A stretch of DNA of 64,000 bases from contig JAAZBV010000115.1 in assembly GCA_012513605.1 (NCBI GenBank), forward strand, positions 15,227 to 79,226. The letters are read 5' to 3'. The notes under the pieces are model-generated. The model was not told the DNA's origin. It ran no database searches and worked only from the letters and a program-made list of their open reading frames with translations. This DNA is from Desulfatiglans sp. (GTDB lineage Bacteria > Desulfobacterota > DSM-4660 > Desulfatiglandales > HGW-15). The position numbers and the translations under genes were made by a program. This document shows positions 1,823 through 24,852 of this stretch, one piece after another (positions within the stretch are counted from its first letter, which is position 1; every line of letters starts with the position of its first letter).

Positions 1823-1838
1823 ATATCGGATTAGACAT
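1823..1838. promoter_or_regulatory. Candidate operator, dyad ATATC-N6-GACAT, upstream of the ferredoxin/AOR operon
   Basis: ccttATATCggattaGACATaa. Same left half (YWTATATCR) and spacing as the sites at 3315, 6819, 14379/14401 and 24801/24823. One mismatch in the right half. Confidence 0.4.
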
Positions 1839-2032
1839 AACTGTCAATAAAAATTTTTTAAAATTATCTAAAGATCTTTTTTTAACGCATACTTGTAATA
1901 GATAATGCTAATAAATATACTTTTATATCCAGTCTCATAGTGAATAGTTTCCACGGCTCTATTACAGTCGGCAAAGTGTTTATCTCTTTCTGATGACGCC
2001 TTTTTTCAGCACATTAACTACCGGAGAGCAGA

Positions 2033-3136
2033 CTAATTAATATTATCAAGCATGATGATATGCGTAAGGCCCCATGTCTCCCGGTCAACATAATAATCTT
2101 TTACCGGCCCAAGGCTGGCCCCGCCCCTTACAGGTTTTCCATCAACCTCATTTACCAGCATCATACGTCGGCCAGCCTCTGTTTTAAATATCTCTCTGCC
2201 GGAAAATAGGGTTCTGTATCCATCACATGCAACAAAGAGAAAAAATTTCTCAGGCCCTGCCTCAGGGAAATTGTTTTTGAGGAGAGAACGCATGTTGTAT
2301 CCCCTGGCAGACGATATTACTTTAAAACCTCTTCCGTGCCCGGTCCTGACCCACCCATCGATAGATGCGGTTTCAACCCCTTCAAAGCTCAAAGGATTGC
2401 TGACTCCGTTTTTGACAATGCTGATTGCCTCTGAAGAGCATTTCAGCCCCTGCTGCATCACAGGTAACCCTTTATTATCAACAACAGGATCACTGTAAAC
2501 AATCCTTATCACATTATCGAGATATCTTGCAGTGTCAGGCTCAGCAGGGCATACTAGACGCAGACCATTAAGGGGTTCTTTATGAATATTGTATTTATAT
2601 TCTTCTCCATTTTGCGATTTTGCAGGGAGCAGCTCATTTCTTTTGTAAGCAAGAATTACAGGCTCAGAATCATCGGTCATAGTCAGTTCACCAAAGCTGA
2701 AATGACGACTTTCTCCGCTTTCAGAGATAAATGTGACCACAACATCAAGAGGTCGGTCAAAAGGAGCTCCTTCAGGCTTTTTTGGTGCAACACCTTCAAG
2801 TATATGAAGCACAGGGATTCCTGTGTACCTGTATGTCCCCTCAAAATCCCCTTCTAAAGAAACCTCGTGAGTGCGGACATATGTTGAGGCAAAGGCATTA
2901 AGAGCACCTCTGTCAAACCGGTAAACCTTTTCCGTATCTCCGGCAACTTCAAGTAAAAAGCCCTTTCCAACATCCTCTTTTACCGCAAGGGGTGTTGCCC
3001 CGGTAACGGCTATTATTTCGATATAGTTTCTTTTATTGTGAACATATAAAAACACTGTACTCGTGATTACAAGCGCCACGACAAATCCGACCGCCCCGTA
3101 TATCAGATGTTTTCCGATCATATTGCTCCCCTGCAT
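2033..3136 (-). CDS. Membrane-anchored hypothetical protein with an internally duplicated domain that resembles the sulfite-oxidase/YedY Oxidored_molyb fold
   Basis: N-terminal TM helix (HLIYGAVGFVVALVITSTVFLYV). Two similar halves: YTGIPVLHILEG...VVTFISESGESRHFSFGEL...VILAYKRNELLP...LRLVCPAEPDTARYLDNVIRIVY versus GYNMRSLLKN...FVACDGYRTLFSGREI...MMLVNEVDGKPV...YYVDRETWGLTHIIML. The fold assignment is from memory only. Confidence 0.45.
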   Translation of the reverse strand: MQGSNMIGKHLIYGAVGFVVALVITSTVFLYVHNKRNYIEIIAVTGATPLAVKEDVGKGFLLEVAGDTEKVYRFDRGALNAFASTYVRTHEVSLEGDFEGTYRYTGIPVLHILEGVAPKKPEGAPFDRPLDVVVTFISESGESRHFSFGELTMTDDSEPVILAYKRNELLPAKSQNGEEYKYNIHKEPLNGLRLVCPAEPDTARYLDNVIRIVYSDPVVDNKGLPVMQQGLKCSSEAISIVKNGVSNPLSFEGVETASIDGWVRTGHGRGFKVISSARGYNMRSLLKNNFPEAGPEKFFLFVACDGYRTLFSGREIFKTEAGRRMMLVNEVDGKPVRGGASLGPVKDYYVDRETWGLTHIIMLDNIN

Positions 3137-3278
3137 CCTCTTTCAGTTTTTCTTCTTATATCCATATCTCATTAAGAATGATCACTTCTATTACAAAATT
3201 TATACATATGTCAATATTGATATAAATTATAATTGACAGGAAAAGACATCTGGTTTATTTTGGCTATCCTTAAAAACC

Positions 3279-3304
3279 ACCCGCATTGCTGCGGGTTCTT
3301 TTTT
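3279..3304. terminator. GC hairpin with T-runs on both strands (bidirectional terminator-like)
   Basis: ACCCGC-attgct-GCGGGT followed by tcttttt. The reverse strand reads the same stem followed by ggttttt. It lies between divergent genes, just upstream of the 3315 operator. Confidence 0.45.
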
Positions 3305-3314: not shown

Positions 3315-3330
3315 ATATCAATTCCGATAT
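3315..3330. promoter_or_regulatory. Candidate operator, perfect dyad ATATC-aattcc-GATAT, about 80-95 bp upstream of the ALDH start
   Basis: gcttATATCAATTCCGATATaag. The 16-mer matches the site at 6819-6834 at 15 of 16 positions (final T vs C). Confidence 0.55.
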
Positions 3331-3409: not shown

Positions 3410-4876
3410 ATGAAGGAATTCAAATTGCTGATAAATGGAAAACTGGTTAATGCATTATCCGGTAAGAGATATCCGGTCATCAATCCCGCAAATGAAGAAA
3501 CATTTACAGATCTGCCTCTCGGGGGAATAGATGAGGTTAACATGGCAGTTAAAGCGGCTGGCTCGGCCTTCCCCATATGGTCAAAAGTCCCTATATCCGA
3601 AAGATGCAGGTTCGTAAAAGAAATCGCAACGGGCATAAGGGAAAATGCAGACGAGCTTGCACAACTTGATACCCTTGATCATGGCACTCCGGCAAAAATG
3701 GCATTTCACATGGCAATGGCCTCTGCTTCGTGTCTTGATTTTGCGGCTGAAGCAGCAAGAACTATGATGAGTGAGATGATCCCGGCGTCCAGTAATACCC
3801 TCACATACACCAGAAAAGAGCCTGTCGGAGTTGTTGCGCTTATCACCCCATGGAATGCACCCTTAATGATGATCTGTGATAAACTCGGCGGAATCCTGGC
3901 AACAGGCAACACCTGTATTATAAAGCCGCCAAGTATTGATTCCCTTGAGGCCCTGAAGCTTGCTGAAATTATCTCTAAAGTAAATCTTCCTCCAGGAACT
4001 GTAAATATAATAACCGGACCAGGCGGATTGGTTGGCAATGCCCTGTCATCACATCCTGATGTCAACATGGTTGCCTTTACCGGCAGTTGTGAAACCGGGA
4101 AGGTAATTTTTGAAAATGCGAGCAGGACAGTAAAGAAAGTCGGCATGGAACTCGGTGGTAAAAACCCCTATATCGTTCTTGAAGATGCTGACTTAGATGT
4201 TGCACTGGATAAAATAGTAAGGTCTCAGTATATAAATACAGGGATGATATGCGCGGCTCCTGGAAGAATATATGTTCATGCAAAAATATATGATGAATTT
4301 ATTAATAGATTCATCGAAGAATCAAAAAAGATAACAGCAGGCAATCCCAATGATGAAAAGACATTCATGGGGCCGGTTGTAAGCGCTGAACACAGGGATA
4401 AGGTAGAAGGGCTTATCAAGTCAGGCATAGAAGAGGGTGCAACCCTTTTGCTCGGCGGAAAGAGACCGACTGATCCTTTACTTGAAAAGGGTTACTATAT
4501 ATTGCCCACGGTGTTCAGCAATGTAACGCAGGAAATGAAGATATACCGTGAAGAGATTTTTGGGCCGGTTGCATGTATTGTGAAATTCTCTTCTGAAGAT
4601 GATGTTATCAGGGCTGCAAATGATAATGCCTTTGGCCTCTGTGCAGCAGTGTTCACTAAAGACACGGCTAAAGGCATCAGGTTTGCCAATGAGATTCAGG
4701 CGGGGACAGTATGGATAAATGAGGGATTAACCGCATCAACCGATCTTCCCTGGGGCGGTTATAAGGAAAGCGGATTCGGAAAGGTAAGCGGGGTAAAGGG
4801 CATTCATGAGTTTACACAGGAAAAACTTGTGTGGATTGACCTGCATGGCGGGAAAATGCAGCAGATGCCGGGCTAA
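3410..4876 (+). CDS. NAD(P)-dependent aldehyde dehydrogenase (ALDH superfamily)
   Basis: MKEFKLLINGKLV..., with ALDH signatures PWNAPL, FTGS..TG, MELGGKNP, catalytic Cys region MICAAPGR, EEIFGPV and PWGGYKESGFG. I prefer ATG 3410 with the AAGGAGAAGG RBS over the GTG at 3383 in the ORF track. Confidence 0.9.
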   Translation: MKEFKLLINGKLVNALSGKRYPVINPANEETFTDLPLGGIDEVNMAVKAAGSAFPIWSKVPISERCRFVKEIATGIRENADELAQLDTLDHGTPAKMAFHMAMASASCLDFAAEAARTMMSEMIPASSNTLTYTRKEPVGVVALITPWNAPLMMICDKLGGILATGNTCIIKPPSIDSLEALKLAEIISKVNLPPGTVNIITGPGGLVGNALSSHPDVNMVAFTGSCETGKVIFENASRTVKKVGMELGGKNPYIVLEDADLDVALDKIVRSQYINTGMICAAPGRIYVHAKIYDEFINRFIEESKKITAGNPNDEKTFMGPVVSAEHRDKVEGLIKSGIEEGATLLLGGKRPTDPLLEKGYYILPTVFSNVTQEMKIYREEIFGPVACIVKFSSEDDVIRAANDNAFGLCAAVFTKDTAKGIRFANEIQAGTVWINEGLTASTDLPWGGYKESGFGKVSGVKGIHEFTQEKLVWIDLHGGKMQQMPG

Positions 4877-5179: not shown

Positions 5180-6691
5180 CTACAGCACAATACTGACTGT
5201 CTTCACCTCTGTATGGTAATCTATCGCTGACTTACCATTTTCTCTTCCAATGCCTGACTGCTTGAACCCTCCAAAGGGAAGGTTTGGATCAGGTGGCAGG
5301 GTTGCCCCGTTTATTGTTATCATTCCTGCATTAACCGCTGCAGCGGTCTTGATGGCGTTATTCAGATCCTTTGTCCAGATATTGGCTGCCAGACCATAGT
5401 TTGTGTCATTGGCTTCTGGAATAAGGTCTTCAAGTGTATTAAAAGGCGTTGCTATAAGTACAGGCCCGAATATCTCTTCTCTATAGATTGCTGCCTTTTT
5501 ATCAACATCCACAAATATGGTTGGTCTTACAAAATTGCCGGGCCTGTCTATGCCTTTACCGCCTGTAACAAGCCTTGCGCCTGAATCAATACCCTTCTGC
5601 ATATACTGGAGCACCTTGACCTTCTGTGATGCGTTTATAAGCGGCCCCATCTCATTTTCAGGGTCCATGCCAGGGCCTATCTTCATGGTTTCAGCCCTGT
5701 GCTGGATGGCGCTTACCACCTCATCAAAACGCTTTTTCTGAATAAAGAGCCTTGAACCTGCAACGCAGATCTGGCCGCAGTTGTGATAGACACACATTGA
5801 TGCCTCAAAAGGGGCTGATTTCATATCTGCATCATCAAATATGATGCTCGGTGATTTGCCGCCCAATTCAAGGGAGATACGTGTAAGGTTCTCCATTGCA
5901 GCCTTGGCAATGCTTTTACCCACTTCTGTTGAACCGGTAAATGTAATTTTATTGATCCTCGGGTCAGAAACAAGCCTTGAACCTACTACCCCGCCAGGCC
6001 CCTGCAGAAGATTCACTACCCCGTCCGGCACCCCGGCCTCCTGTAACAGTTCCATGAGTCTGCCTGCTATAAGGGGTGTATCCGAGGCAGGTTTGATGAC
6101 CATTGTGCACCCGGTCGCAATCGCAGGGGCAACCTTGCTAACAAACATGGGCATTGGTGCGTTCCATGGAATAACCGCAGCAACAACACCAACAGGCTGA
6201 CGAAGGGTATATGAAAAAACCTGATCCACATGGGGTAAAAGTGTCATAGGGACAAGGGTTTCACCCGCGATCTTGGTTGCAAGACCAGCATAATATTTGG
6301 AAAAATTGATACCCATCATACAGTGTCCAGGATCAGTTGCGGGCCTGCCCAGATCCATACACTCAATCTGACAGAGCTCCTCACGGTTTTTATCAATAAG
6401 ATCTGCAAATCTGAGGAGTATATCCTGGCGTTCCGCGCCGGTCATCTTTTTCCAGGGAGAGTCATCAAATGCCCTGCGTGCCGCTGTCACAGCCATGTCA
6501 ACATCAGCTATTCCGCTTTTTGATGCATGGGCAACAACTTCATTTGTTGCAGGGTCTTTTTTTTCAAAAGTCTCGCCACCCACCGCGCTCTGCCATTTAC
6601 CATTAATGCAGTTTTTAACTTCCTTTGAAAGGAATGCCTTAACCCTGGGCAATAAATTATATTCCGATACTGATAAAAATTTCTCTGCCAT
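5180..6691 (-). CDS. NAD(P)-dependent aldehyde dehydrogenase (ALDH superfamily), second paralogue
   Basis: 503 aa with PWNAPMPM, FTGSTEVGK, LELGGKSP, catalytic Cys region GQICVAGSR, EEIFGPV and PFGGFKQSGIGRE. AAGGAGAA RBS. Confidence 0.9.
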   Translation of the reverse strand: MAEKFLSVSEYNLLPRVKAFLSKEVKNCINGKWQSAVGGETFEKKDPATNEVVAHASKSGIADVDMAVTAARRAFDDSPWKKMTGAERQDILLRFADLIDKNREELCQIECMDLGRPATDPGHCMMGINFSKYYAGLATKIAGETLVPMTLLPHVDQVFSYTLRQPVGVVAAVIPWNAPMPMFVSKVAPAIATGCTMVIKPASDTPLIAGRLMELLQEAGVPDGVVNLLQGPGGVVGSRLVSDPRINKITFTGSTEVGKSIAKAAMENLTRISLELGGKSPSIIFDDADMKSAPFEASMCVYHNCGQICVAGSRLFIQKKRFDEVVSAIQHRAETMKIGPGMDPENEMGPLINASQKVKVLQYMQKGIDSGARLVTGGKGIDRPGNFVRPTIFVDVDKKAAIYREEIFGPVLIATPFNTLEDLIPEANDTNYGLAANIWTKDLNNAIKTAAAVNAGMITINGATLPPDPNLPFGGFKQSGIGRENGKSAIDYHTEVKTVSIVL

Positions 6692-6791: not shown

Positions 6792-6834
6792 GCATATGGG
6801 ATTTTTGATATATCCCATATATCAATTCCGATAC
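6792..6834. promoter_or_regulatory. Candidate tandem operator in the divergent ALDH / Mo-enzyme intergenic region
   Basis: GCATATGGGatttttGATATATCCCATATATCAATTCCGATAC. The core ATATC-aattcc-GATAC lies at 6819-6834, with a possible TTGTAA-N16-TATAAC promoter just downstream. Confidence 0.5.
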
Positions 6835-6919
6835 AACAAGTAAATTTTTTTTGTAAAATAAAAATATTATGTTATAACCCACTGGCTAAGCAAAAAAGCA
6901 GAAAGGAAAATAATAATAA

Positions 6920-9358
6920 ATGACTGATGACGGAATAAAGAAGGTCCGCACCACTACATGGTCAGGGGGACCTGGGTGCCACGGCGGATGCGGTGTTATA
7001 GCCCACATTAAGGATAATAAGCTTGTAAAGATAGAAGGTGACCCGGATCACCCCATGAACAGAGGCAGGCTCTGCTCCAGGTGTCTGGCCATGACACAGA
7101 TTGTGCATCACTCTGAGAGGCTGACAAAGCCCCTTAAACGCATTGGCGAGAGAGGTGAAAACAAATGGCAGGAGATCTCCTGGGATGAGGCATTTGATTA
7201 CATTGAAGAAAAGATGAATAAGATCAAGGCGGAATACGGCCCTGAAAGCATGACCTTTTCAATGGGCACAGGCCGCGATGTTGGGGCCTGGATATGTATG
7301 CTTGCCTATGCTTTCGGCAGCCCGAATGTCTCATTTGCCATGAGCGGAAATGGCTGTTATTCACCCAGGATTGCAGCCACAGAAATAGTTATAGGTGACT
7401 ACTGCATATTTGATGGCGGTCAGTGGTTCCCAAAGGGCCATGACGACCCGGGCTATACGGTCCCTGAATGCATAGTCATATGGGGTTATAATATTCCGGC
7501 TTCATGCCCGGACAATATCTTTGGCCACTGGGTAACAGACCTGATGAAAAAGGGTTCCAAGGTTATCACAATAGACCCGCGCCTGAGTTTTTTTGCATCC
7601 AGGTCAGATAAATGGCTCCCGCTCAGACCAGGTACAGACGGCGCCCTTGCAATGGGCTTTCTGAATATTGTCATAAAGGAAGGGCTTTATGACAGAGACT
7701 TTGTAAAAAAATGGACAAACGCACCACACCTGATCAGACAAGACACAGGTAAGTTATTAAGGGAGATAGATATTGACCCGAAAGGCGATACCAAAAACTT
7801 TGTGGTATGGGATAAAGCCTCATGTAAAACTGTGATATGGGATTCAGGATGCGCTGGCTATAAAGCTGAGGTAGGTGAAGCAGCTCTTGAGGGTGAGTTT
7901 GATATAACCCTTGCCTCCGGTGCAGAAATAAAGACAACAACCGTCTGGACAAAGTTCTGCGCAAGGGCAGCGGAATACCCGGTTGAAAAGGTGGCTCAAA
8001 TCACCTGGCTCAAAGAGAAGGACATAATAGAGGCGGCACACCTGTATGCGAAGAGCAAACCCGCATCCATCCAGTGGGGCCTTGCAATTGATTCCACACC
8101 TGCCGTAACACCCACAGCCACAGCCATTGCCTCATTATGGAGCATTATGGGGAACCTGGATATTCCGGGTGGAAACCCGATTGCGCGATATGCCTATAAT
8201 GCAGTGGCCTATGCTTTGCCCGGCGCTAAAGGGGTAATCAGGCTGGAAGACAAAGAGATGGATAAAAAGCGGATAGGTTATAATGACTATGGCCCGTTCA
8301 GGGAATTCATCTGGAGAACCCAGACCGATAAGATGTTTGAGCAGATATTTACTGAAAAGCCCTACCCTGTTAAAGGTATGTGGCTCCAGTGCTGCAACCT
8401 TATAGGCGGCACAGGGTATGATCCTAAAAAATGGATAGAGGCCCTTAAAAAGCTGGATTTTGTGGCTGTTACCGATATCTTCATGACACCCACATGCCAG
8501 ATGGCTGATATTGTGCTGCCTGCAACATCATTTCTTGAAAAGGACAGCATCAGAAGCTGGTGGGTGCCTTTGCAGACCATTAATAAGGCAATGACAGTAG
8601 ATGAATGCAGGTCGCTTATTGAGATAAATTTTGAGATGGCAAAGAGGTTTGATCCTAACTTCAGATGGAAAACCATTCATGACCTGTTTGACGAGATACT
8701 TGCGCCGTCAGGTATGACATTTAAGGAGTTACAGAAAAAGGGGTGGTCAATACCCCCTGATGGAAACCCCAGCGCGCCATATCATCGACATGAAAGGGGC
8801 CTGTTAAGGCAGGATAAAAATCCCGGGTTCCAGACCCATTCAGGCAAGGTTGAACTCTATTCAACCCTGAGGGAGGAGTGGGGCCTTGACCCCATACCCT
8901 GCTATGAAGAACCCCCATTTACACCCATAAGCAGGCCTGACCTGGCTGAAAAATATCCACTTATCCTATCAACTGGTAGAAGATCACCGGTCTTTTTCCT
9001 ATCGGAACACAGGAACATACCATGGTTAAGGGAGGCTGATCCTGATCCTGTTGTGGAAATCCACCCGGATACTGCAAAATCCCTTGGTATTGAAAACGGT
9101 GAATGGGTATGGGTGGAAAACTGGATGGGCAAATGCAAGCTCAAGGCAAAGGTCACACCTATTGTACCAAGGTGGATGGTAATGGCTGCACACGGCTGGT
9201 GGTTTCCTGAAAAGGAGGGTGCAGAACCTTCGCTTTATGGGATGTGGGATTCCAATATCAACCAGTTAATGCCCATGGGGGCAAACGGAAAAGATGGCCT
9301 TGGTACAATCACAAAGCATCTTTTATGTAAAGTTTACAAGGTGAATGGAGAGGCATAG
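6920..9358 (+). CDS. Cytoplasmic bis-MGD molybdo/tungstopterin oxidoreductase, catalytic subunit (DMSO-reductase superfamily; substrate unknown)
   Basis: 812 aa with no Tat signal. N-terminal Fe-S Cys pattern GPGCHGGCGV...RLCSRC. The size and the C-terminal barrel-like segment (VEIHPDTAKSLGIENGEWVWVEN..GKCKLKAKV) are typical of the family. Confidence 0.8.
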   Translation: MTDDGIKKVRTTTWSGGPGCHGGCGVIAHIKDNKLVKIEGDPDHPMNRGRLCSRCLAMTQIVHHSERLTKPLKRIGERGENKWQEISWDEAFDYIEEKMNKIKAEYGPESMTFSMGTGRDVGAWICMLAYAFGSPNVSFAMSGNGCYSPRIAATEIVIGDYCIFDGGQWFPKGHDDPGYTVPECIVIWGYNIPASCPDNIFGHWVTDLMKKGSKVITIDPRLSFFASRSDKWLPLRPGTDGALAMGFLNIVIKEGLYDRDFVKKWTNAPHLIRQDTGKLLREIDIDPKGDTKNFVVWDKASCKTVIWDSGCAGYKAEVGEAALEGEFDITLASGAEIKTTTVWTKFCARAAEYPVEKVAQITWLKEKDIIEAAHLYAKSKPASIQWGLAIDSTPAVTPTATAIASLWSIMGNLDIPGGNPIARYAYNAVAYALPGAKGVIRLEDKEMDKKRIGYNDYGPFREFIWRTQTDKMFEQIFTEKPYPVKGMWLQCCNLIGGTGYDPKKWIEALKKLDFVAVTDIFMTPTCQMADIVLPATSFLEKDSIRSWWVPLQTINKAMTVDECRSLIEINFEMAKRFDPNFRWKTIHDLFDEILAPSGMTFKELQKKGWSIPPDGNPSAPYHRHERGLLRQDKNPGFQTHSGKVELYSTLREEWGLDPIPCYEEPPFTPISRPDLAEKYPLILSTGRRSPVFFLSEHRNIPWLREADPDPVVEIHPDTAKSLGIENGEWVWVENWMGKCKLKAKVTPIVPRWMVMAAHGWWFPEKEGAEPSLYGMWDSNINQLMPMGANGKDGLGTITKHLLCKVYKVNGEA

Positions 9359-9361
9359 ATA

Positions 9362-9703
9362 ATGGCAAAAAAACCGGAATACGGACTACTGATAGATTAT
9401 GAATACTGCACAGGGTGTTTTGCATGTCAGGTAGCATGCGCTCAGGAATATAAATGGCCGGCAGGCATGGGTGGCATCAGGGTTATTGAGATTGTGGAAA
9501 ATCTCCCCAATGACAAACACTATTTAAAATTCATGCCCATACCGACAGAGTTGTGCATCCTCTGCGCAGGGAGAACAAAGAAGGGGGAAAAGCCTGCATG
9601 CGTTCATCACTGTATGGCAGCATGCATGAAGTATGGAAAGATAGAGGAACTGGCAAAAGAGATTAACAAGCCCAGAATGGTATTGTGGGCGCCAAGGGGG
9701 TAA
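9362..9703 (+). CDS. Small 2x[4Fe-4S] ferredoxin-like subunit of the Mo/W enzyme
   Basis: 113 aa with CTGCFACQVAC and CILC...CVHHCMAAC. The start is 4 nt after the upstream stop. GGAGAGG RBS. Confidence 0.75.
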   Translation: MAKKPEYGLLIDYEYCTGCFACQVACAQEYKWPAGMGGIRVIEIVENLPNDKHYLKFMPIPTELCILCAGRTKKGEKPACVHHCMAACMKYGKIEELAKEINKPRMVLWAPRG

Positions 9704-10958: not shown

Positions 10959-10959
10959 T

Positions 10960-11328: not shown

Positions 11329-11333
11329 TTTTC

Positions 11334-13988: not shown

Positions 13989-14079
13989 TAATTATCCTCC
14001 TTTTCGGTTAAAAAGATTTGCATATAGCTATCTAATAATCATAGATATTTCCCGATAACCAACTTCTTACTCTTATCCA

Positions 14080-14343: not shown

Positions 14344-14374
14344 TTTCGCCTCGTTTTAAATCCAATTAATAAAG

Positions 14375-14430: not shown

Positions 14431-14523
14431 AATATGTTTTTTTAAAAACCTGTAATAATTTGATGAAAATCAGGGACAGAGATGATACACATATGAGAAA
14501 TTGTCTTTAATCGAGGTTAACTC

Positions 14524-14922: not shown

Positions 14923-14949
14923 TAAGATAAAAGCTGTGCAGGAGATAAT

Positions 14950-16245: not shown

Positions 16246-16249
16246 AGCT

Positions 16250-17068
16250 ATGGCTAAAGAGAATCATTCAAATGAAATCACCGCTCCTGAAGCTGATAAT
16301 CAATGTTGTCCTACAGAAACAGGCAGCATTATAGGCATATATAAATCAGGCTGCCTTGTTTGCGGTGCGCCCCTTATCTATTACTGGAAAAATAAAGAAA
16401 GCAGATGCTGTTTTTGTGGAGAAATTTTACAGGCTAATGCCGGGTGCCCTGTTGGTCATTTTGTATGCGATAAATGCCACAGCGCAGATGTAATAGAGAT
16501 CATTAAAAATGTCTGCCTGCAGAGCCGGGAGAGTAACATGGTAAAGCTTATGCAGGCCATACGATCGCACCCCCTGTTCAAGATGCACGGACCGGAACAC
16601 CATTCCATGGTACCGGCTGTTATACTCACCGCCCTTAAAAACAGAGGGGAACAGATTACAGATGATGATATAGTGACGGCAATTGAGAGAGGGAAGACGG
16701 TCTGCGGCGGGGCATGTGCAATTTTAGGCGCATGCGGCGCTGCAATTGGTGCAGGCATTGCAATATCAATAGTACTGAAAGCGAGCCCCAATGATGGAGG
16801 AAAAAGACAGGCTGTTCAGCAGGCCACACAGAGGGTGCTTGCAAGAATAGCATCATTTAAGGCTCCGCGTTGCTGCCAGAGAGACTCATGGCTGGCATTG
16901 AAGGAGGCTTCAGCTATCATAAATGAAATAACCGGAAAATCTTTACCGGTATATTCTTTTAAATGTGAACAGTTACAGGAAAACAGGGAATGCATCCATG
17001 AGCATTGTCCGCTGTGGCCCGGTATTCGTGACTCCCTTAAAGGCGGGAATCCAGAATTTTACGTTTAA
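16250..17068 (+). CDS. Cys-rich protein, C-GCAxxG-C-C-like (putative redox-active; DVU_1555-like by recollection)
   Basis: 272 aa. N-terminal Zn-ribbon-like Cys pairs (CLVCGAP...CCFCG...CDKCH), HGPEHH, CGGACAILGACGAAIGAGIA, then RCCQRD. The start is 5 nt after the radical SAM stop. Confidence 0.55.
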   Translation: MAKENHSNEITAPEADNQCCPTETGSIIGIYKSGCLVCGAPLIYYWKNKESRCCFCGEILQANAGCPVGHFVCDKCHSADVIEIIKNVCLQSRESNMVKLMQAIRSHPLFKMHGPEHHSMVPAVILTALKNRGEQITDDDIVTAIERGKTVCGGACAILGACGAAIGAGIAISIVLKASPNDGGKRQAVQQATQRVLARIASFKAPRCCQRDSWLALKEASAIINEITGKSLPVYSFKCEQLQENRECIHEHCPLWPGIRDSLKGGNPEFYV

Positions 17069-18341
17069 GTGTACCGGTTGTAAAATAATCGACATCACCT
17101 TCTTCAACATATAAAATCAGGCCCTCTTCCTTGAACAGAGAGGGTAGCTCCATTTTTATCCTGCGAATCAGAGCCTCCGGATCAGAAGGGCCGCTTGCCG
17201 GTTTAACAATAATTCGCAGACAGTCACGTCCATTCACAGTTTGAAGCTCTGCGCCATATGTCAGTATTGATGGTTCTTTGCACAATATTTCATCGAGCTG
17301 GGTAATAGAGAGGATGTTCCCGTCTGCGAGCATTAGAGGTTCTGCGAACCTGCCTGTGATGCGATCCAGACGCCTGAGTAGTGTGCCGCAGGGACACTTA
17401 TCAACTAGAAACCTTGCTCTGTCTCCTGTCCTGTATCTTATAAGCGGCATGCCCTGCCGCGTTAGCGTGGAAAACACCACCTCACCATATTCGCCCTCCT
17501 GTACCTGAAAAGCGCTTACAGGGTCTATTACCTCAAATAGGAGATCTGACTCACGCAGGTGATACCCCTCACCTGCATCACACGCCACACCTCCGCCAAG
17601 GCCCATTTCAGTCATACCATAATGCTCGTATAGGGTTGCTCCCCAGGCCTTTTTAATCACACTGGCAGCAGAGAGAGGGACATAGTCCGCGCTAAGCAGG
17701 ACGCTTTTAAGTGATATCCTGTAGTTACTGTTTTCACTCATACGGGCAATGGATAGAATCTGGGCGGGTATCCCTACCATGCAGGTGATTTTCTCCTTAA
17801 CGATCATGTCCAGTGCGTGTGTGTTATCTTTTATTGGGCCGTATACGATGCTTTTACAACCAAAACGGGCAAGGCCGCGTTTAAGCAGGTCGCCAACACT
17901 GCCTTCAGTCCCCCCAGGCATAAAGATCATGACAATATCGTGTTCATCGGTCATCGTCATCATGCCGTGATGAAAAAAATCCATGGTGACCTCCTGATCC
18001 TCATTTGTAAAAAAAACCCGTTTAGGCATCCCGGTTGTGCCTGATGTCCCCAATGTAACGATGCGTCCTACTTCCCTGGGAGACACACACAAAAAACCTT
18101 CTGGGTCTGATGCAATATCATCAGGTGTTGTCAATGGCAGACGGGTGATATCCGCCATATCACGGATATCAGAGGGATTAATTTCTGCCAGATGCTTCCT
18201 ATAAAAGCGGCTGTTCTTTTTTACATTAGTAAGGGTTTCACGTAATTTTTCAAGCTGGTATTCATGCAGCCTTTTCAGATCAAGTCGTCCGGGGATATTG
18301 ATTTTATTCGCTATCCATTTATCTAAAGGGGTCATATTCAT
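17037..18341 (-). CDS. Adenylate-forming ligase, phenylacetate-CoA ligase / F390-synthetase-like (PaaK family)
   Basis: AMP-binding motif TSGTTGMPKRVFFT, YGMTEMG, RYRTGD. I prefer ATG 18341 over TTG 18374. The 3' end overlaps the convergent gene by 32 nt. Confidence 0.8.
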   Translation of the reverse strand: MNMTPLDKWIANKINIPGRLDLKRLHEYQLEKLRETLTNVKKNSRFYRKHLAEINPSDIRDMADITRLPLTTPDDIASDPEGFLCVSPREVGRIVTLGTSGTTGMPKRVFFTNEDQEVTMDFFHHGMMTMTDEHDIVMIFMPGGTEGSVGDLLKRGLARFGCKSIVYGPIKDNTHALDMIVKEKITCMVGIPAQILSIARMSENSNYRISLKSVLLSADYVPLSAASVIKKAWGATLYEHYGMTEMGLGGGVACDAGEGYHLRESDLLFEVIDPVSAFQVQEGEYGEVVFSTLTRQGMPLIRYRTGDRARFLVDKCPCGTLLRRLDRITGRFAEPLMLADGNILSITQLDEILCKEPSILTYGAELQTVNGRDCLRIIVKPASGPSDPEALIRRIKMELPSLFKEEGLILYVEEGDVDYFTTGTLKRKILDSRL

Positions 18342-18351
18342 AGGTAGCAGA

Positions 18352-19056
18352 TTATCTCTCCACTTTCCTGGCAATAATCAGGCGATAACAGTGATCAGAG
18401 ATCTTGAATCCCCCTGCAAACCTGTTACAGATGAACCAGCTAGCATCACAGGCACCACCAAATTTCTCAGAGAGCTCTGCTGCATAGGTGATAAGCGCAG
18501 GGGTATGATCCTCGCTTACATCTATATTAAACCCTGCCTCAGCGAGCCTTGATTCAAGCCATGTGAAAAGGGGCAAAGAGGAATTTTGTGCCTCTTGCCT
18601 TGAAAAGATGTCAGATATAATAAGTTTTCCCTTGCTACTGAGCGCGCTATAACATTCATCAACCAATCTTTCGCTAAAGCCCATCACCGATAGCGAACAC
18701 TCAAATAAAGCGGCATCAAGGCTCTGCGACTCAAAAGGTAGCTTTTTCCCATCCCGATGAATGAGGTTAAGGCCAGGGTTTTTGCTGAGTCCGATACAGA
18801 TGAGCGGCCCGGAGATATCGAGCCCGGTCATTAAGAGTCCGTATTTCCAGGTAAGATAGGCCGCTGTGGTCCCTGCGCCGCAGCCTATATCAGCCACCTT
18901 CATCCCTTTATGAAGCCCGGCCAGCCTTATGGCCCTGTCAGTCAGCCTTAGCCCGCCGGGATGCATTGAGTGATCATTCAGAAGAGAGAATTCTTCGGAT
19001 TCGTAGATATTATTCATTTCCGTTTGGTGTGTGGACTGTCGGATTTTTATTTTCAT
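18352..19056 (-). CDS. Class I SAM-dependent methyltransferase with an extra C-terminal domain
   Basis: SAM motif I VADIGCGAGTTAAYL, then LDIS..., GKLIISD. The start is uncertain (ATG 19056 with a GGAAGA RBS, or TTG 19077). Confidence 0.75.
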   Translation of the reverse strand: MKIKIRQSTHQTEMNNIYESEEFSLLNDHSMHPGGLRLTDRAIRLAGLHKGMKVADIGCGAGTTAAYLTWKYGLLMTGLDISGPLICIGLSKNPGLNLIHRDGKKLPFESQSLDAALFECSLSVMGFSERLVDECYSALSSKGKLIISDIFSRQEAQNSSLPLFTWLESRLAEAGFNIDVSEDHTPALITYAAELSEKFGGACDASWFICNRFAGGFKISDHCYRLIIARKVER

Positions 19057-19120
19057 ACTGCTATTCTTCCGGAACAAAAGGGATGACCTTCTCTATTTAG
19101 TCTTTGATTAAAATGCCTTT

Positions 19121-19148
19121 CGCTGAAGGCTGATCGCTGACTGCTGAC
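19121..19148 (-). repeat. 4 x heptamer tandem repeat, reverse complement of the NTCAGCN family
   Basis: The plus strand reads CGCTGAA GGCTGAT CGCTGAC TGCTGAC. On the minus strand it reads as TCAGC heptads, beginning 37 nt after the stop of the 64-aa gene. Confidence 0.7.
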
Positions 19149-19184
19149 CGCTTTCATCTAAAAACACGGGTTTTTGGGTGAACT

Positions 19185-19379
19185 CTATTTATCTTCCAGT
19201 TGCGCCTCCACCTCTGCCATGCGGCCTTCTGCCAATTCCTTTGGAATAAGGCCGTTTCCGCATTTGGGGCACCGCATGATTTCATGGGAGAATGTGTGTC
19301 CAAGGTATGAAAACAGCATCTTCTTCAATACGAGCTCTTTATCACATTTTGCGCATTTCCAGGTTCTGTTCGCATCCAA
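19185..19379 (-). CDS. 64-aa double-CxxC zinc-ribbon / redox mini-protein
   Basis: WKCAKCDKEL...MRCPKCGNGL. TTG start with a GGGAGGG RBS, 4 nt after the upstream stop (codons checked by hand against the sequence). Confidence 0.6.
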   Translation of the reverse strand: MDANRTWKCAKCDKELVLKKMLFSYLGHTFSHEIMRCPKCGNGLIPKELAEGRMAEVEAQLEDK

Positions 19380-19383
19380 GGCA

Positions 19384-21627
19384 TTAACCCTCCCTGTTGA
19401 ATTTCATTCTGTGGATATAGGCGCTCCGGATCTCATACTCGCCCGTTTTAAGCTCTTTATACTGGACCCAGTAAGTGAGTACAGATTTAACCATACTGCA
19501 CTGGATCACACCATCATCACTGAGAAACCTCTCGCCCGTTTGCTTGGCCAGCCATATGGCCTCCTTCAGGTCGTCTTCAATAATGAGTTTCCTGTCAAGC
19601 TCATCCTGCAACTCCACGCTGATAATGAGTCTGATGCTGTCCCATTCATGTTTCTCCGGGATGAAATCATCTCCAGTTAATCTTTTCATGAGTTTCTTTT
19701 TTACCTCCAGGGCATTTTCCTTTTGTGACTTAAGGGTGGGCAAACATTTTTTCAGATCAATGTCATATACCATGTCAAGTATATGGGCACACTCCTTGCC
19801 TTTCTGCCGGAACACCTCCCTGCAATTGGCGCAGTATACAATATAGGGTTTATCGCTGGCATCGTTGCGGTGTTTTGTGATCTCCTCATACAGACCGGGA
19901 TTGGCAAGGCGCATATGACCGCCATAGCCGCAGCATCTGTTCGGATTATCAAGCTCTTCAATCGCTACACCGGCCCGTCCGGCCAGGATACGTACGCCTT
20001 CCTGCATGGTCTTATCGTCGCGGGCTGTACATGGGTCAAACATGGCCGCTGACTCAAAAAGCCTGGCCGGGACAATAGAATCATCCTTTGCCATCAGTGT
20101 ATAGAGACTTTCCTGTTTTATTTCCGGCATGAGCAGTCTGAAAATATTCTCACAGTAGGCGCAGGCAAATATTAATGTGGGTCTCTCCATGCTGTTCCAG
20201 ATAGAGCGGATGCGTTCAATGTTGTCCGCAAGACGTTTTTTATCTCCAGCCCAGTAAGCCGGTGCCCCGCAACAGCCGACCATAATCCCGGCATTGAACT
20301 TTTCCTGCAGATAGTTGTAGGGCTTGAGGACATGGTCAGGTTCTGCCGCTCCAAGCTGACACCCCGGAAAAAAGAGATATTCACAGCTCTCCTCCTTTTT
20401 AGAAGGCGAAACAAAAAAGGCTTCCGAGGTGTGAAAATCAAACTGGCCTATCCAGAAATCATGAAAAGCCGGTATATTTTTATTGGTACGTAACCGGTCT
20501 TCCCTGGAAAATTGCATCAATGCGCCAACATCCACACCAACCGGACATACGCTTTTACATTTACCACAGATGTTGCAGGAATAGGTCTCACGGGTAAGAG
20601 AGCGCTTGGAAAGCGATGAGCCAGATTGAGAGTCAGTATATACCTCAACGCCAAGTTTGGGAGGCATCTTCCTGAACCACTTGATCATCTCGCAGTTTTC
20701 CCAGCATATCCTGCAGTCGCATAGAAAGCATCTGGAGGCCTCTGCCTTGGCCTCACCCTCGGTATATCCCTCAGGAGAGGTCATCGTAACAAGCGCCTTA
20801 TTTTCTTCCCCACTATGGTTCAGAAAGTGTACGCGGTTTTTTGTAACCCGATCTGAATCGGGTAGGGCCGCCTTACCTGTTTCAAAATATCCCTCCATGA
20901 TCCTGGCAAGGAGCGAGCCCTGTGCGATGGATTCCATGAGAGGAACCCCGCAGAGAGCGCCGCCCATAAATACCCCTGTGCGGGAGGTAGTCATAAGATC
21001 AGAATCATGGCTATCCATAAGACCGAATGTTGCCCCGTTTTTACCAGTGGCAACATATATGGCATCAAAGCCTGTAAGAGTATCTAAAGAGCCGATCTCC
21101 CGGTTGAATTCAAAGAGAGCATCAGTAGCTGAGAACTGCAGGGTAATGTCATCATCGAACAACTTAAAATCAGGGTGGGACCGCAAAGCGCCACCCCAGC
21201 CTGTCTCTTTTTCAAAGATTGTAACATGAAATTTTTTCTGTGCGAGATTCAGTGCACACGACAGGCCCGCAGGCCCCCCACCTATAATGGCTATATGCTG
21301 TTTTTTTGGTGGTATTACAAAATTTTCCGGCCTTCGGGTTAAGGCATACCGTGTACAGGCGTATTCAAGGTCTCGCACTGCCAGAGGTTCGTCTCCGATG
21401 GATGGTCGCTGGCAGTTATTCCTGCATGGCTGAGGGCATAGCCTGCTTACGATCACAGGAAAAAGAACTGTGTCCCGGAACGTTTTATATGCCGGAATCC
21501 ACCTCCCCTTTTTCACCCTTTCCATAAAAAAACGGATGTCAAGGCCGAACGGGCAGGCGTATGAGCAGGAGGCTGGCTCACCGCTAAAACAATCATTGAC
21601 AAATACTCTTGATTCTTCAAGCTTCAT
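19384..21627 (-). CDS. Fusion protein: GltD-like NAD(P)H flavoprotein + 2x[4Fe-4S] + two HdrD/GlpC-type CCG domains + C-terminal domain
   Basis: 747 aa. Dinucleotide fold HIAIIGGGPAGLSCALNL after an N-terminal Cys-rich segment. CFLCDCRICWENC and CNICGKCKSVCP. CCG motifs FFPGCQLG...GCCGAPA and FDPCTA...RCCGYGG. Confidence 0.8.
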   Translation of the reverse strand: MKLEESRVFVNDCFSGEPASCSYACPFGLDIRFFMERVKKGRWIPAYKTFRDTVLFPVIVSRLCPQPCRNNCQRPSIGDEPLAVRDLEYACTRYALTRRPENFVIPPKKQHIAIIGGGPAGLSCALNLAQKKFHVTIFEKETGWGGALRSHPDFKLFDDDITLQFSATDALFEFNREIGSLDTLTGFDAIYVATGKNGATFGLMDSHDSDLMTTSRTGVFMGGALCGVPLMESIAQGSLLARIMEGYFETGKAALPDSDRVTKNRVHFLNHSGEENKALVTMTSPEGYTEGEAKAEASRCFLCDCRICWENCEMIKWFRKMPPKLGVEVYTDSQSGSSLSKRSLTRETYSCNICGKCKSVCPVGVDVGALMQFSREDRLRTNKNIPAFHDFWIGQFDFHTSEAFFVSPSKKEESCEYLFFPGCQLGAAEPDHVLKPYNYLQEKFNAGIMVGCCGAPAYWAGDKKRLADNIERIRSIWNSMERPTLIFACAYCENIFRLLMPEIKQESLYTLMAKDDSIVPARLFESAAMFDPCTARDDKTMQEGVRILAGRAGVAIEELDNPNRCCGYGGHMRLANPGLYEEITKHRNDASDKPYIVYCANCREVFRQKGKECAHILDMVYDIDLKKCLPTLKSQKENALEVKKKLMKRLTGDDFIPEKHEWDSIRLIISVELQDELDRKLIIEDDLKEAIWLAKQTGERFLSDDGVIQCSMVKSVLTYWVQYKELKTGEYEIRSAYIHRMKFNREG

Positions 21628-21689
21628 GTGTACTAATCATCCTAAAGGGTTAAGCAAGGTGCTGCTTCAGATACTCCAGCGCAGATAAT

Positions 21690-21719
21690 GTTTCGTAATC
21701 CCCGCAGGGATTACGAAAC
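21690..21719 (-). other. Perfect 13-bp intercistronic hairpin between mop-2 and the flavoprotein gene
   Basis: GTTTCGTAATCCC-cgca-GGGATTACGAAAC. No T-run on either strand. Confidence 0.6.
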
Positions 21720-21749
21720 GGTTGGTTTATAAAGGTTAAACCCCGGTGC

Positions 21750-24578
21750 TTAGATGGGATTGGCCTTGATATTTTCAAGCTCTTCCTCAAAGTCAGTGCC
21801 AAGGTAATACTTTGGTGGTGTGAGATCCTCACCGCGATGTTTTGCCTCTAATCCGGCTTTGACTTTGTCAGGCGTTGCAGGCAGTGAATAAATGCGAACC
21901 CCGCAGGCGTTGTTGATACCGTTGATGACCGCCATATGACCGGAAGACTGGTAGCACTCAGAGCAACCGCCTGAACCGTGTGGTCCAGCCTTACGGGGAG
22001 TCTCCTGGAAGATCAGGGTGATATCATCAGGAATCACATCGATTGTGGGGATACCACAGCCGGCCATATTGCCATGCCTGTTTTCTGCGTTGTAATCCTC
22101 ACTTAATGCAAAACCGATGCTGTGAGACAACCCGCCATAGGCCTGCCCTTCAACAGAGAGCCTGTTACCTATTACGCCGATATCGGAAACACATGTGTAC
22201 CTTAGCACCTTTGATTTTCCGGTTTTAATATCAACCTCTACCAGCGCAACATTTACACAGTACATATATCCCGGGTTTTTCTCACCCTCTCCGGTATTTG
22301 GATCAAGACCGGGTGGCAGTCCTATGTTAAATTGATCATAGTGCCCGATATATTTTGTTGGTATTTTTTCAGCAACCATCTCATCATATGTTCTGTAGGT
22401 GCCATCAGCCTTACGCATGGCGTCCATGAGCCTGGCAGCAGCATCAAGGGTGGCATTACCTGCCATATAGTGAGAACGGCTGGCAGCTGCCACGCCAGTA
22501 TCCGGGCAGATCTTGCTGTCATTCATAACAAGTTTAATCTGATCAGGTTTAACCCCGAGCGGTGCAAGGGCCTTGACAGCGTGTGTAAGAGCCCCAATAT
22601 CTGCACCCTGACCAACATCCTCCCAGGTGTTAAAGTGGGTGAAGGTTCCGTCAGCATTCATCTCAATAGCTACCTCGGCCTGATCAAAAGCGCCGATAGT
22701 GTATATGAAACCGCCCATACTGATACCGACCCCAACATGTCTTCCCTCTTTTTTGGCTGCTTCAGCCTCGGCCTTGTATTTATCATAATAGGGTTTTGCC
22801 TTATTAAGCAGTTCAGGATAGAGGTAATCATGGTATGGCCTGCTGTTGATGGTCAGGTCACCTGGTCTGGCCGCGTTTTTATAGCGGAACTCCCAGGGGT
22901 CCATTCCGATCTTTTCAGCGATCATGTCAATAAGGGCCTCTGTAGTAGTATATACCTGCGGGGCGCCAAAACCGCGGTATGCCGCACAGAAGGCGTGGTT
23001 TGTAGATGCTCCTCGTGCAAGGGCCTTGAAATTTGGAATATTGTATCCGTGGAAACCGACAGAAACAAGGTTGTTGAATATCTTATTGCCCATGGTTCCG
23101 TAAGCCCCGTGATCCAGACCTATATCATACTCTGCGGCTGTGATCCTGCCATCCTTGTCACAGGCTATCCGTGCGTTACTGAATGTGGCGGATCGCTTAC
23201 CGGTCATATGGTTGAATTCCTCATAGCTCAATGTAAGTGTGCAGGGTATACGGAGGTGCTGGACAGCGGTTGCTACGATGGCAAAGGTGTTAGCGCTTAC
23301 AGAATATCCAAAGGAACCGCCAACCGGATTCATAATGATCCGGAGCTCTTCTATAGGAATACCACATGCGTGTGATATACTTTCACGGTCCTCACCGATC
23401 CCCTGTGATTTACACTGGAGTGTCAACATACCGTCCAATCCGATGTACCCCTGAACAACATCCGGCTCTATGGGCAGATGGGGCTCGTGCTGTGAGTGGA
23501 AGCTTCCTTCCGCAACAAATTCTGCCTCCTCAAAGACCTCGACAGTATCTCTGCCTTTAAAAACCGGCTGTTCCAGATAAAAATTGGGCAGGCCCTCATG
23601 CAACTGAATGGCATTGGGCATAACCGCCTCCGGGAATGTCATATATGCGGGCAGCACTTCAAGGTTCTGTTTAACCTTCTTTGCAGCCTCACGTGCATGC
23701 TCTTCTGTGTCAGCGGCAACGAGGGCCACACAGTCGCCGCGTTTATTTATCTTTTTATCGGCAATTACCGGGAAGGGGGCAATCCCGCGGCCCAGGACGC
23801 GCGGAAGAAGCGGAGGGGCATCAAGGTTGTTTGAGCCCAGGACATCCTTGGCTGTAAAAATCCTGATGACACCGGGCATCTTTTCAGCCTCTTCCGTATC
23901 GATATTGATAATCTTGGCATGTGCAACCTGAGAGATAACAACGGCCAGATGCGCAGTACCTTCAGGCATTTTATGTTTTATGTCATCGCCGTAATTGGTT
24001 AGTCCGCACACCTTGGCAAGCGCTGTTGGTCGCGGGCGATATGAACCGTATATCTCCTTTTCGCCATCAAAGTCATAGGTGATATCATTCATTGTGGCCT
24101 CGCCGCGCATAACTTTGGCAGCAGCCATAACTGAATCAACAAGAGGTTTGTACCCTGTGCAGCGGCAGACATTCTTGTGTACCCTGAACCATTCACGGAC
24201 CTCTTCCCGGGTAGGATTCGGGTTTTCTTTAAGGAGCCCATAGGATGAAACAATAAAACCGGGCGTACAGAAACCGCACTGGACACCGCCATAAGTAATC
24301 CACGCCTGCTGAAGCGGGTGCAGGTTCTGAGGGGTGCCTATGCCCTCTATTGTTGTGATCTCGCTGTAGTCAGGGACGTTTTTCATCTTTTTTGTGCAGG
24401 AACGGATGACATCACCGTTGAATAAAATGGAACAGGCGCCACACACGCCGGTGCCACATCCGATTTTTACCCCTGTCAGCCCCATTCTCCTCAGGACAAC
24501 AGCCAGATTGTCTTTATTCGGGTCGCATATAACAGACCTGGGAACACCATTGATATTTAAGTGTATACATGTCACCAT
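21750..24578 (-). CDS. mop: Mop-type aldehyde oxidoreductase (xanthine-oxidase family; 2x[2Fe-2S] + Moco), paralogue 2
   Basis: 942 aa. LTGVKIGCGTGVCGACS...TIEGIGTPQNLHPLQQAWITYGGVQCGFCTPGFIVS...VCRCTGYKPLVDSVMAAA...YRPRPTALAKVCG is nearly colinear with D. gigas MOP as I recall it. It has an atypical active-site loop, GSGGCSECYQSS, and a C-terminal extension. Confidence 0.9.
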   Translation of the reverse strand: MVTCIHLNINGVPRSVICDPNKDNLAVVLRRMGLTGVKIGCGTGVCGACSILFNGDVIRSCTKKMKNVPDYSEITTIEGIGTPQNLHPLQQAWITYGGVQCGFCTPGFIVSSYGLLKENPNPTREEVREWFRVHKNVCRCTGYKPLVDSVMAAAKVMRGEATMNDITYDFDGEKEIYGSYRPRPTALAKVCGLTNYGDDIKHKMPEGTAHLAVVISQVAHAKIINIDTEEAEKMPGVIRIFTAKDVLGSNNLDAPPLLPRVLGRGIAPFPVIADKKINKRGDCVALVAADTEEHAREAAKKVKQNLEVLPAYMTFPEAVMPNAIQLHEGLPNFYLEQPVFKGRDTVEVFEEAEFVAEGSFHSQHEPHLPIEPDVVQGYIGLDGMLTLQCKSQGIGEDRESISHACGIPIEELRIIMNPVGGSFGYSVSANTFAIVATAVQHLRIPCTLTLSYEEFNHMTGKRSATFSNARIACDKDGRITAAEYDIGLDHGAYGTMGNKIFNNLVSVGFHGYNIPNFKALARGASTNHAFCAAYRGFGAPQVYTTTEALIDMIAEKIGMDPWEFRYKNAARPGDLTINSRPYHDYLYPELLNKAKPYYDKYKAEAEAAKKEGRHVGVGISMGGFIYTIGAFDQAEVAIEMNADGTFTHFNTWEDVGQGADIGALTHAVKALAPLGVKPDQIKLVMNDSKICPDTGVAAASRSHYMAGNATLDAAARLMDAMRKADGTYRTYDEMVAEKIPTKYIGHYDQFNIGLPPGLDPNTGEGEKNPGYMYCVNVALVEVDIKTGKSKVLRYTCVSDIGVIGNRLSVEGQAYGGLSHSIGFALSEDYNAENRHGNMAGCGIPTIDVIPDDITLIFQETPRKAGPHGSGGCSECYQSSGHMAVINGINNACGVRIYSLPATPDKVKAGLEAKHRGEDLTPPKYYLGTDFEEELENIKANPI

Positions 24579-24796
24579 AAATCAGATCCTTTCAATCCCA
24601 TATGATCTCACTGAAAAGCGACTCGGGTTATGGGCCATTCATTCTCCCTTTCATTGTGCAATCATATGTATTTAAATGTGTTAATAAATAACCTTTTCAA
24701 AAGAATACCCATTTTAATGAAGGGACTATAATGGATTTATACCCCTATTTTTATACCCTTCCTTTTTTACCCTGTTTTTCATCCATTAGATAAAAT

Positions 24797-24852
24797 GCAT
24801 ATATCGATTTTGATATTTCTATATATCAGGTTCGTCATATCAAATCAAAAAA
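24797..24852. promoter_or_regulatory. Tandem operator module upstream of mop-2 (homologous to 14375-14430)
   Basis: GCATATATCgattttGATATttCTATATATCaggttcGTCATATCAAATCAAAAAATATTT. Confidence 0.6.

Follow-up and report, generated by a model that had tools for sequence, protein, structure and literature searches.

A conserved palindrome within predicted promoters of aldehyde-oxidation operons in Desulfatiglandales is a candidate repressor operator

Here, we report that a palindromic element, ATATC-N6-GATAT, recurs in front of aldehyde-oxidation operons in a 64,000-nucleotide stretch of DNA (below, the window) from an uncultured Desulfatiglans of the order Desulfatiglandales, and that its sites are non-random and conserved at a fixed position relative to promoter-like hexamers. 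We read the element as the operator of one transcription factor, encoded elsewhere in the genome, that would repress its targets by promoter occlusion, and we give this reading a probability of roughly 60%. The target operons all serve aldehyde oxidation, either directly or by maturing its cofactors, and the element joins tungsten (W)-, molybdenum (Mo)- and nicotinamide adenine dinucleotide (NAD)-dependent aldehyde oxidation, together with sulfur-relay and MoeA maturation genes, in one predicted regulon. The motif and the regulon are new; as a mechanism, placing an operator inside a promoter is conventional. Judged by comparative genomics, the regulon prediction appears well supported and of an ordinary kind. 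The Desulfatiglandales are uncultured or hard-to-grow anaerobes associated with the degradation of aromatic compounds in digesters and sediments, and we know of no work on gene regulation in this order. The 22-bp site offers a precise bait for identifying the regulator and is useful for annotation and for the design of expression experiments.

RESULTS

Palindromic sites in front of aldehyde-oxidation operons

Sites of the form ATATC-N6-GATAT were found at positions 1823, 3315, 6819, 14401 and 24801, with weaker, phased copies at 14379 and 24823. These sites had been listed in a first-pass annotation of the window, whose quoted sequences were present where it had placed them, and its observation that the 3315 and 6819 sites match at 15 of 16 positions was correct. 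The list had missed a sixth strong site, ATGTCAATATTGATAT (3208-3223), which lies about 70 bp upstream of the gene for a membrane protein of 367 amino acids (aa). The degenerate copy proposed at about position 6792, in which the spacer is 8 nt, fails to score as a canonical site. The 1823 site had been called weak; its score is 25-26 bits, and it is the ortholog of the site that relatives conserve best. All of the sites are intergenic and confined to the first 25 kb of the window, and the core is matched exactly at three of them (3315, 14401 and 24801).

The operator in the promoter of the aldehyde:ferredoxin oxidoreductase (AOR) operon (1823-1838, minus strand) reads ATATCGGATTAGACAT in the window and ATTGACA-gtt-ATGTCTAATCCGATAT-aagg on the minus strand. 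The site at 3315-3330 is a perfect operator, CTTATATCAATTCCGATATAAG (16-nt site ATATCAATTCCGATAT), located between the gene for the aldehyde dehydrogenase ALDH-1 and the minus-strand AOR operon. The operator of the ALDH-2 promoter, ATATCAATTCCGATAC (6819-6834, minus strand), also precedes a divergent Mo/W-bisPGD oxidoreductase gene, whose predicted start is about 60 bp away. Upstream of the two Mop-type aldehyde oxidoreductases the sites are paired on the minus strand. At Mop-1, operator O1 (14401-14416) is followed 22 bp downstream by the weaker O2 (14379-14394, 10 bits), which lies over the predicted transcription start; at Mop-2, O1' (24823-24838, two mismatches) is followed 22 bp downstream by O2' (24801-24816, perfect core). 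The sequence CCATATATCAGTTT occurs twice, at 14376 and 14398, 22 bp apart, and the sites at 24801 and 24823 have the identical layout.

When one mismatch or none was allowed, the window contained 16 matches to ATATC-N6-GATAT, compared to 3.1 +/- 1.8 in 100 dinucleotide-preserving shuffles, none of which reached 16. A matrix built from the relatives only gave five window sites scores of 25.7, 24.8, 25.5, 27.0 and 26.7 bits and the 24801 site 15.9 bits, and the top score in 100 simulated windows was 15.3. In the intergenic DNA of the window (7481 nt, 34% GC), five sites reached at least 15 bits against 0.01 expected, and the matrix scan found no site in the remaining 21 intergenic segments, indicating that the motif is not a general property of AT-rich intergenic DNA here. 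An unbiased repeat finder applied to the first 26 kb returned the same elements as the top two direct-repeat families. The short pattern ATATATCANTT by itself was not significant (13 matches in the window, 8.7 expected).

Pooling of 36 distinct sites gave the motif wTRTRTCR-N4-YGAYAYAw, with the best form cTTATATC-N6-GATATAAg. The palindrome spans 20-22 bp (TTATATC-N6-GATATAA), and the centres of its half-sites are 11 bp apart. Positions C5 and G12 were fixed in all 36 sites and T2/T4 in 71-72 of 72 half-sites, while the spacer positions varied, and A/G and T/C changes were symmetric between the two halves. The pooled set thus has the fixed half-sites and free spacer of a dyad-symmetric site, among sites that were selected by score with a matrix carrying those positions.

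The palindrome lies inside predicted core promoters

The AOR, ALDH-2, Mop-1 and Mop-2 sites are best read on the minus strand, where each lies inside a predicted sigma-70-like core promoter. The palindrome occupies the spacer between the predicted boxes, with its dyad centre 11-12 nt past the -35 box. The -10 hexamer would come from the proximal half-site (GATATAAG or GATATATG), the predicted -10 box being the outer part of this half-site in all four promoters. At the AOR operon (minus-strand sequence tttttATTGACAgttATGTCTAATCCGATATaagg), a putative -35 box TTGACA (1842-1847) stands 16 nt before the -10 box TATAAG (1820-1825). By reading of the sequence, the spacing is 17 nt in the other three minus-strand promoters: TTTACT (6839-6844) and TATATG (6816-6821) at ALDH-2, TTGATT (14421-14426) and TATATG (14398-14403) at Mop-1, and TTGATT (24843-24848) and TATATA (24820-24825) at Mop-2. 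The trailing ATATCAAATCAAAA, which had been taken for a part of the Mop module, corresponds to the putative -35 box TTGATT and the A/T tract upstream of it.

Across the window and its relatives, putative boxes TTGACA, TTGATT or TTTACT, inferred from consensus and not called by a promoter scanner, stood 16-17 nt before TATAAG or TATATG in 5 AOR, 9 ALDH-2 and 5 Mop promoters, and the ALDH-2 -35 box was kept with the A/T tract behind it in all nine sequences. At Mop-1, the second operator extends the arrangement 22 bp further, and the Mop-2 design is alike. Inspection by eye revealed no sigma-54 promoter downstream of the sites, and the gap between the Mop-1 sites and the start codon of ORF87, the first gene of the operon, is only 36 bp.

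The 3315 site had been assigned to ALDH-1. It does lie by that gene, but together with the 3208 site it probably serves both ALDH-1 and the divergent membrane-protein/ferredoxin/AOR operon. Between these two operators there is a GC-rich hairpin with U-runs on both strands (3279-3296). In the related loci L008 (about 9625-9665) and L013 (about 11555-11597), a terminator-like hairpin with a T-run separates the promoter/operator, which it follows directly, from the next operator. The position of the hairpin is conserved and its sequence is not, and it is bidirectional in the window. Possible roles are attenuation in the leader, insulation of divergent promoters from each other and termination of a tiny transcript.

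The sites are kept upstream of orthologous genes

The proposal that the aldehyde-oxidation units share an operator was borne out in related genomes. In about 12 related Desulfatiglandales assemblies, the orthologous genes were preceded by the same sites, and the half-sites were constant while spacers and flanks drifted, as expected for a repressor operator. Since the motif was also absent from the other AT-rich intergenic DNA of the window, neither of the sequence-based grounds on which the first-pass annotation would have given up its proposal, a general occurrence in such DNA and a lack of conservation at orthologs, was found to hold.

In eight species-level relatives (L007-L014), whose ALDH-2 is 89-95% identical to that of the window, the ALDH-2 site was kept in 8/8, with a flanking AGTAAA and T-tract. 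It forms part of a short conserved island, and the other intergenic DNA has diverged or carries insertions. Most of these relatives (L009-L014) have a single high-scoring site at the ALDH-2 promoter. Three to five sites lie between ALDH-1 and the ferredoxin/AOR operon in L007, L008 and L013, and two lie upstream of the ferredoxin/AOR operon in L009. The AOR promoter/operator island was conserved in five lineages with unalignable flanks and was the sole conserved block in a six-sequence alignment. Counterparts of the 1823 site, each with TTGAC(A/T)-N16-TATAAG, were located at L007:5930, L008:9600, L009:12267 and L013:11531, and counterparts of the 3208 site at L008:9465, L013:11366 and L007:5766. 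A second operator was found downstream of the one in the AOR promoter, at 73 bp in L008 and L013 and at 67 bp in L007.

Contigs carrying relatives of Mop-1 were retrieved via ORF87 and Mop-1 homologs. The promoters before ORF87-Mop-1 carry arrays orthologous to the window sites in 22-23 bp steps, with two sites in L027 and three in L028-L031 and L152, so the 22-bp tandem phasing that had been noted in the window is itself conserved. Among distant Mop-1 homologs with 73% identity, L153 had no site and L154 had one of 16.6 bits (L154:9874), 127 bp upstream. From the distribution of sites, the motif appears essentially confined to the clade whose Mop-1 is at least 86% identical. A scan of metagenomes with CTTATATC-N6-GATATAAG (16 specified bases) gave at least 120 matches, almost all of them chance occurrences in unrelated GC backgrounds. 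Among the matches listed, L064 alone looked related, with a Mop protein 61% identical to Mop-1 and two upstream sites (1779 and 2187); L074 is a possible second case, and no new regulon member or regulator was found among them. The sites in L064 and L154 stand upstream of distant Mop homologs (61% and 73% identical; GC 51-54%), and as possible sites they hint that the motif may reach beyond the core clade.

A perfect 24-bp palindrome, GCTTATATCAGATCTGATATAAGC, was encountered in unrelated metagenome contigs of high GC content (59-68%), at L067:1579-1600, L101:293-314 and L150:1069-1090, with a variant in L112. Some different system may use it as an operator or recognition site.

The target operons

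The predicted regulated operon at 1-3136 on the minus strand encodes the 367-aa membrane-anchored protein (2033-3136), which has no Pfam or NCBIfam match, a 4Fe-4S ferredoxin with a TAT signal that resembles NrfC/HybA (919-1641), and a tungsten-type AOR (1-918) truncated by the window edge. The presence of a TAT-signal ferredoxin and, in this lineage, a membrane-anchored protein ahead of AOR suggests a membrane-associated or exported AOR complex. A search for the left flank by way of the ferredoxin recovered nothing longer than contigs of about 1 kb. In L008, a 45%-identical paralog of the 367-aa protein comes after a bisPGD enzyme.

ALDH-1, an NAD(P)-dependent aldehyde dehydrogenase (3410-4876, plus strand), starts with an ATG at 3410. 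ALDH-2 (5180-6691, minus strand) is nearest to models of phenylacetaldehyde dehydrogenase, below their cutoff, and in L009 and L010 its operon also holds an AOR paralog and MoeA. Divergent from ALDH-2 are the genes for an 812-aa Mo/W-bisPGD oxidoreductase and a 113-aa ferredoxin (6920-9703, plus strand); whether the 6819 site controls this unit is uncertain. The Mop-1 operon (9795-14343, minus strand) comprises ORF87, the Mop-type aldehyde oxidoreductase (11334-13988), a DsrC/TusE-like protein and a cysteine desulfurase. Mop-2 (21750-24578, minus strand) is a molybdopterin-dependent aldehyde oxidoreductase that matches NF045668 above the curated cutoff. Mop-1 scored 538 bits against a model of selenium-dependent xanthine dehydrogenase, below the cutoff of 830.

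Elsewhere, the window carries genes for an anaerobic ribonucleotide reductase, a V-type ATPase, Mla transport and a P-type ATPase, as well as flagellar genes. In the Mla operon, the gene in the MlaF position (43673-44896, plus strand) encodes an unusual fusion of the ABC ATPase with a GGDEF diguanylate-cyclase domain.

Duplication of the Mop promoter around a 10.4 kb insertion

The Mop-1 and Mop-2 proteins are about 34% identical, and their upstream regions are 77-82% identical over 78-105 nt. The colinearity of the two regions, noted earlier, is real, but its extent had been put at about 55 nt, and what it reflects is a promoter duplicated around an insertion. Copy 1 of the duplicated promoter/operator block lies at 14371-14448, and copy 2, at 24793-24870, is 77% identical and 10,422 bp away. 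In L028-L031 there is one promoter copy, and the ORF87-Mop-1 promoter adjoins yaiI-bipA directly. As this single promoter region aligns to both copies in the window, the window carries an insertion of about 10.4 kb, from about 14420 to 24735, which L028-L031 lack. The block also includes the start of ORF87, of which a decayed copy, MDEKQGKKGRV*, remains upstream of Mop-2. On this alignment, Mop-2 gained a copy of the regulated promoter, and the colinearity reflects inheritance, not convergence.

The inserted genes encode an HNH protein, a TrsS-type radical SAM protein, a DUF5714 protein, an AMP-binding ligase, a methyltransferase, a 'dicluster near Sec' oxidoreductase and Mop-2; database matches above cutoff were obtained for the TrsS radical SAM (seleno)protein (NF045646) and for 'dicluster near Sec' (NF045663). 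The block looks like a selenium-linked accessory module inserted beside Mop-1. A tRNA-Sec gene is present at 31186-31279 on the plus strand (Rfam RF01852, 73.6 bits), indicating that the organism uses selenocysteine, which fits the TrsS and 'near Sec' genes; the Mop-1 score against the selenium-dependent xanthine dehydrogenase model is in keeping with it.

Search for the regulator

No PadR gene or other helix-turn-helix gene was found next to the sites in the window or in the fetched flanks of relatives. L027 has a sigma-54 activator/kinase pair at a distance of 2.5-5.5 kb from its Mop promoter, and L153, a locus that lacks the site, has TetR genes; these were the only regulator genes seen in the flanks, and none was linked to the sites consistently across loci. 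ORF87 (14080-14343, minus strand) was considered as the regulator and rejected, as it had no Pfam or PDB sequence match and matched no DNA-binding fold. It is clade-restricted, with four clusters at 64-100% identity, and heads the Mop-1 operon in every case; its AlphaFold model is a helical hairpin (pLDDT 71) with a best Foldseek E-value of 2.3. An Rfam scan found no known RNA family over the sites and no molybdenum cofactor (Moco) riboswitch in the leaders, the tRNA-Sec being the sole match in the window. A literature search on TunR and on regulators of AOR gave nothing usable.

DISCUSSION

A repressor operator within the promoter

From the placement and conservation of the sites we infer protein binding, repression, formation of dimers or oligomers and the kind of effector, with differing confidence. 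The element is very probably a protein-binding operator, on which a homodimer would probably place one subunit per half-site. Since the palindrome fills the 16-17 nt spacer and one half-site doubles as the -10 box, a bound protein would exclude RNA polymerase, which amounts to repression by occlusion, and we think it fairly likely that the bound factor represses. The extra copies lie on the same face of the helix, at +22 and +44 bp at Mop and, in relatives, at +67 to +73 bp at AOR. By cooperativity or DNA looping they would make repression tighter, and dimer-of-dimers binding is plausible. An aldehyde, a precursor alcohol or an aromatic compound might release the repressor. As all targets share aldehyde oxidation, an aldehyde-related effector is the most economical guess, though we hold it tentatively.

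Several points weigh against this interpretation. The first-pass annotation was right that no regulator gene is visible: no transcription-factor gene was found in the fully annotated window, nor, in any of the relatives fetched, at a distance of up to 10 kb from the sites. The promoter boxes are predicted from consensus, and an automatic promoter scanner called none of them because it demanded a T at the last position of the -10 box. The implied leaders are long, about 170 nt for AOR and about 120 nt for ALDH-2. ALDH-1 has a TATAAG and no convincing -35 box in the window. At ALDH-1 and the Mo/W-bisPGD unit, the site is near -50 to -60 of a plausible plus-strand promoter, which suits activation or no effect, so that control of these two units is less certain and could be positive. 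Because the similarity of the Mop-1 and Mop-2 sites stems from a duplicated promoter, it provides no independent evidence. Finally, the seed sites in relatives were chosen by the window-derived core pattern and the 36 pooled sites by a matrix that rewards C5 and G12, which makes the core statistics and the 36/36 invariance circular in part, a problem that does not touch the flanking positions or the positional conservation.

Alternative explanations

The bound factor may instead be an activator or a dual regulator, either an aldehyde-responsive MerR/NmlR/AdhR-type protein acting inside the promoter or a class I activator of ALDH-1 and the Mo/W-bisPGD unit that also represses the divergent promoters. 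As in MerR-type promoters, the operator stands between the -35 and -10 boxes; the site centres at ALDH-1 and Mo/W-bisPGD are about 50-60 bp upstream of plausible starts, and AdhR of B. subtilis is an aldehyde-sensing MerR-family protein. However, MerR-type activation depends on a spacer of 19-20 nt with a centred dyad, whereas the spacers here are 16-17 nt, the dyad is off-centre and one half-site covers the -10 box. At Mop and AOR, added operators cover the predicted start site and the leader, a placement that fits repression, and we consider activation unlikely.

The site could also be a ModE box that has diverged. Its binding protein would then be a ModE-family regulator responding to molybdate or tungstate, and the regulon would be built around the pterin cofactor, not the substrate. 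Such a regulon would take in the W-dependent AOR, the two Mo-dependent Mop enzymes, the Mo/W-bisPGD enzyme, MoeA and the sulfur-relay maturation genes. The ModE consensus in E. coli and Geobacter is ATCGNTATATA-N6-TATATANCGAT (PMC545781). Its 6-N6-6 geometry and the TATAT within each half of TATATC-N6-GATATA agree with our motif, four of the six units encode Mo/W enzymes, and MoeA is in the ALDH-2 operon of L010. Beyond geometry and core the consensus is not matched, because ModE boxes have A and T where our sites have the invariant C5 and G12, and their conserved flanking CG is absent here. ModE binds DNA when loaded with molybdate, and a metal-loaded repressor on the promoters of Mo/W enzymes, where the sites stand in repressor position, would make no regulatory sense. 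ALDH-1 and ALDH-2 are pterin-independent, and no mod/tup transporter, moa gene or ModE gene was found near any site in the fetched loci, nor, as noted, a Moco riboswitch. A Mo-sparing isoenzyme switch is ruled out by the sharing of one operon by ALDH-2, the AOR paralog and MoeA in L009 and L010. Taken together, these points leave a ModE box quite unlikely. In an evolved version, which we regard as improbable, a Mo/W- or cofactor-sensing apo-repressor on a ModE-type box would keep the pterin-dependent aldehyde oxidoreductases and maturation genes off until the metal or cofactor is available, with the ALDH genes carried along; if true, such a regulon, governed by cofactor availability, would have no described counterpart among sulfate-reducer relatives.

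That there is no dedicated regulator, and that the sites are shared promoter elements (an A/T-rich -10 box, an UP element) plus relics of duplication, is very improbable: a -10-like hexamer does fall on one half-site, the two Mop copies arose by duplication and the DNA is AT-rich, but a -10 box leaves the symmetric distal half-site, the invariant C5/G12 and the phased downstream copies unexplained, an AT-rich background gives 0.01 such sites per 7.5 kb, and the ALDH, AOR and Mop promoters have only the element of about 26-34 bp in common.

Comparison with known systems

PadR proteins are effector-released repressors that control detoxification genes, and their genes are usually adjacent to their targets. 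PadR operators contain an inverted ATGT/ACAT motif with an 8-10 nt spacer (PMC3506622). Our motif has the similar geometry ATRT-N8-AYAT, and 18% of its half-sites (13/72) are exactly ATGT/ACAT; however, most of the sites have ATAT, the invariant C/G by the core is not part of the PadR motif, and no PadR gene is adjacent. On sequence grounds, we take the resemblances to ModE boxes and PadR operators as leads only. LytTR sites, which are non-palindromic 9-bp direct repeats with a 12-bp spacer, paired at 21-22 bp, differ from ours in that each unit here is palindromic and the ALDH-2 site is single in most relatives.

Among known aldehyde-responsive regulators, AdhR/NmlR of the MerR family, FrmR of the CsoR family and YqhC of the AraC family control aldehyde-detoxifying dehydrogenases. 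Their operators are, respectively, a dyad with a 19-20 bp spacer, a G/C-tract and direct repeats, and each is known to control one or two operons. The predicted regulon differs from them in joining W-, Mo- and NAD-dependent enzymes. In its design, the element is close to the classical operators of dimeric repressors in the LexA, TetR, Fur, LacI and HcpR style, with which it would share a palindrome, a predicted overlap with the -10 box and the spacer, helically phased auxiliary operators and a multi-operon regulon recognised by comparative genomics; HcpR sites, for example, overlap the -10 box of sat/aps in Desulfovibrio (PMC545781). In contrast to those systems, the present motif matches none of theirs, and its own half-site would supply the -10 hexamer.

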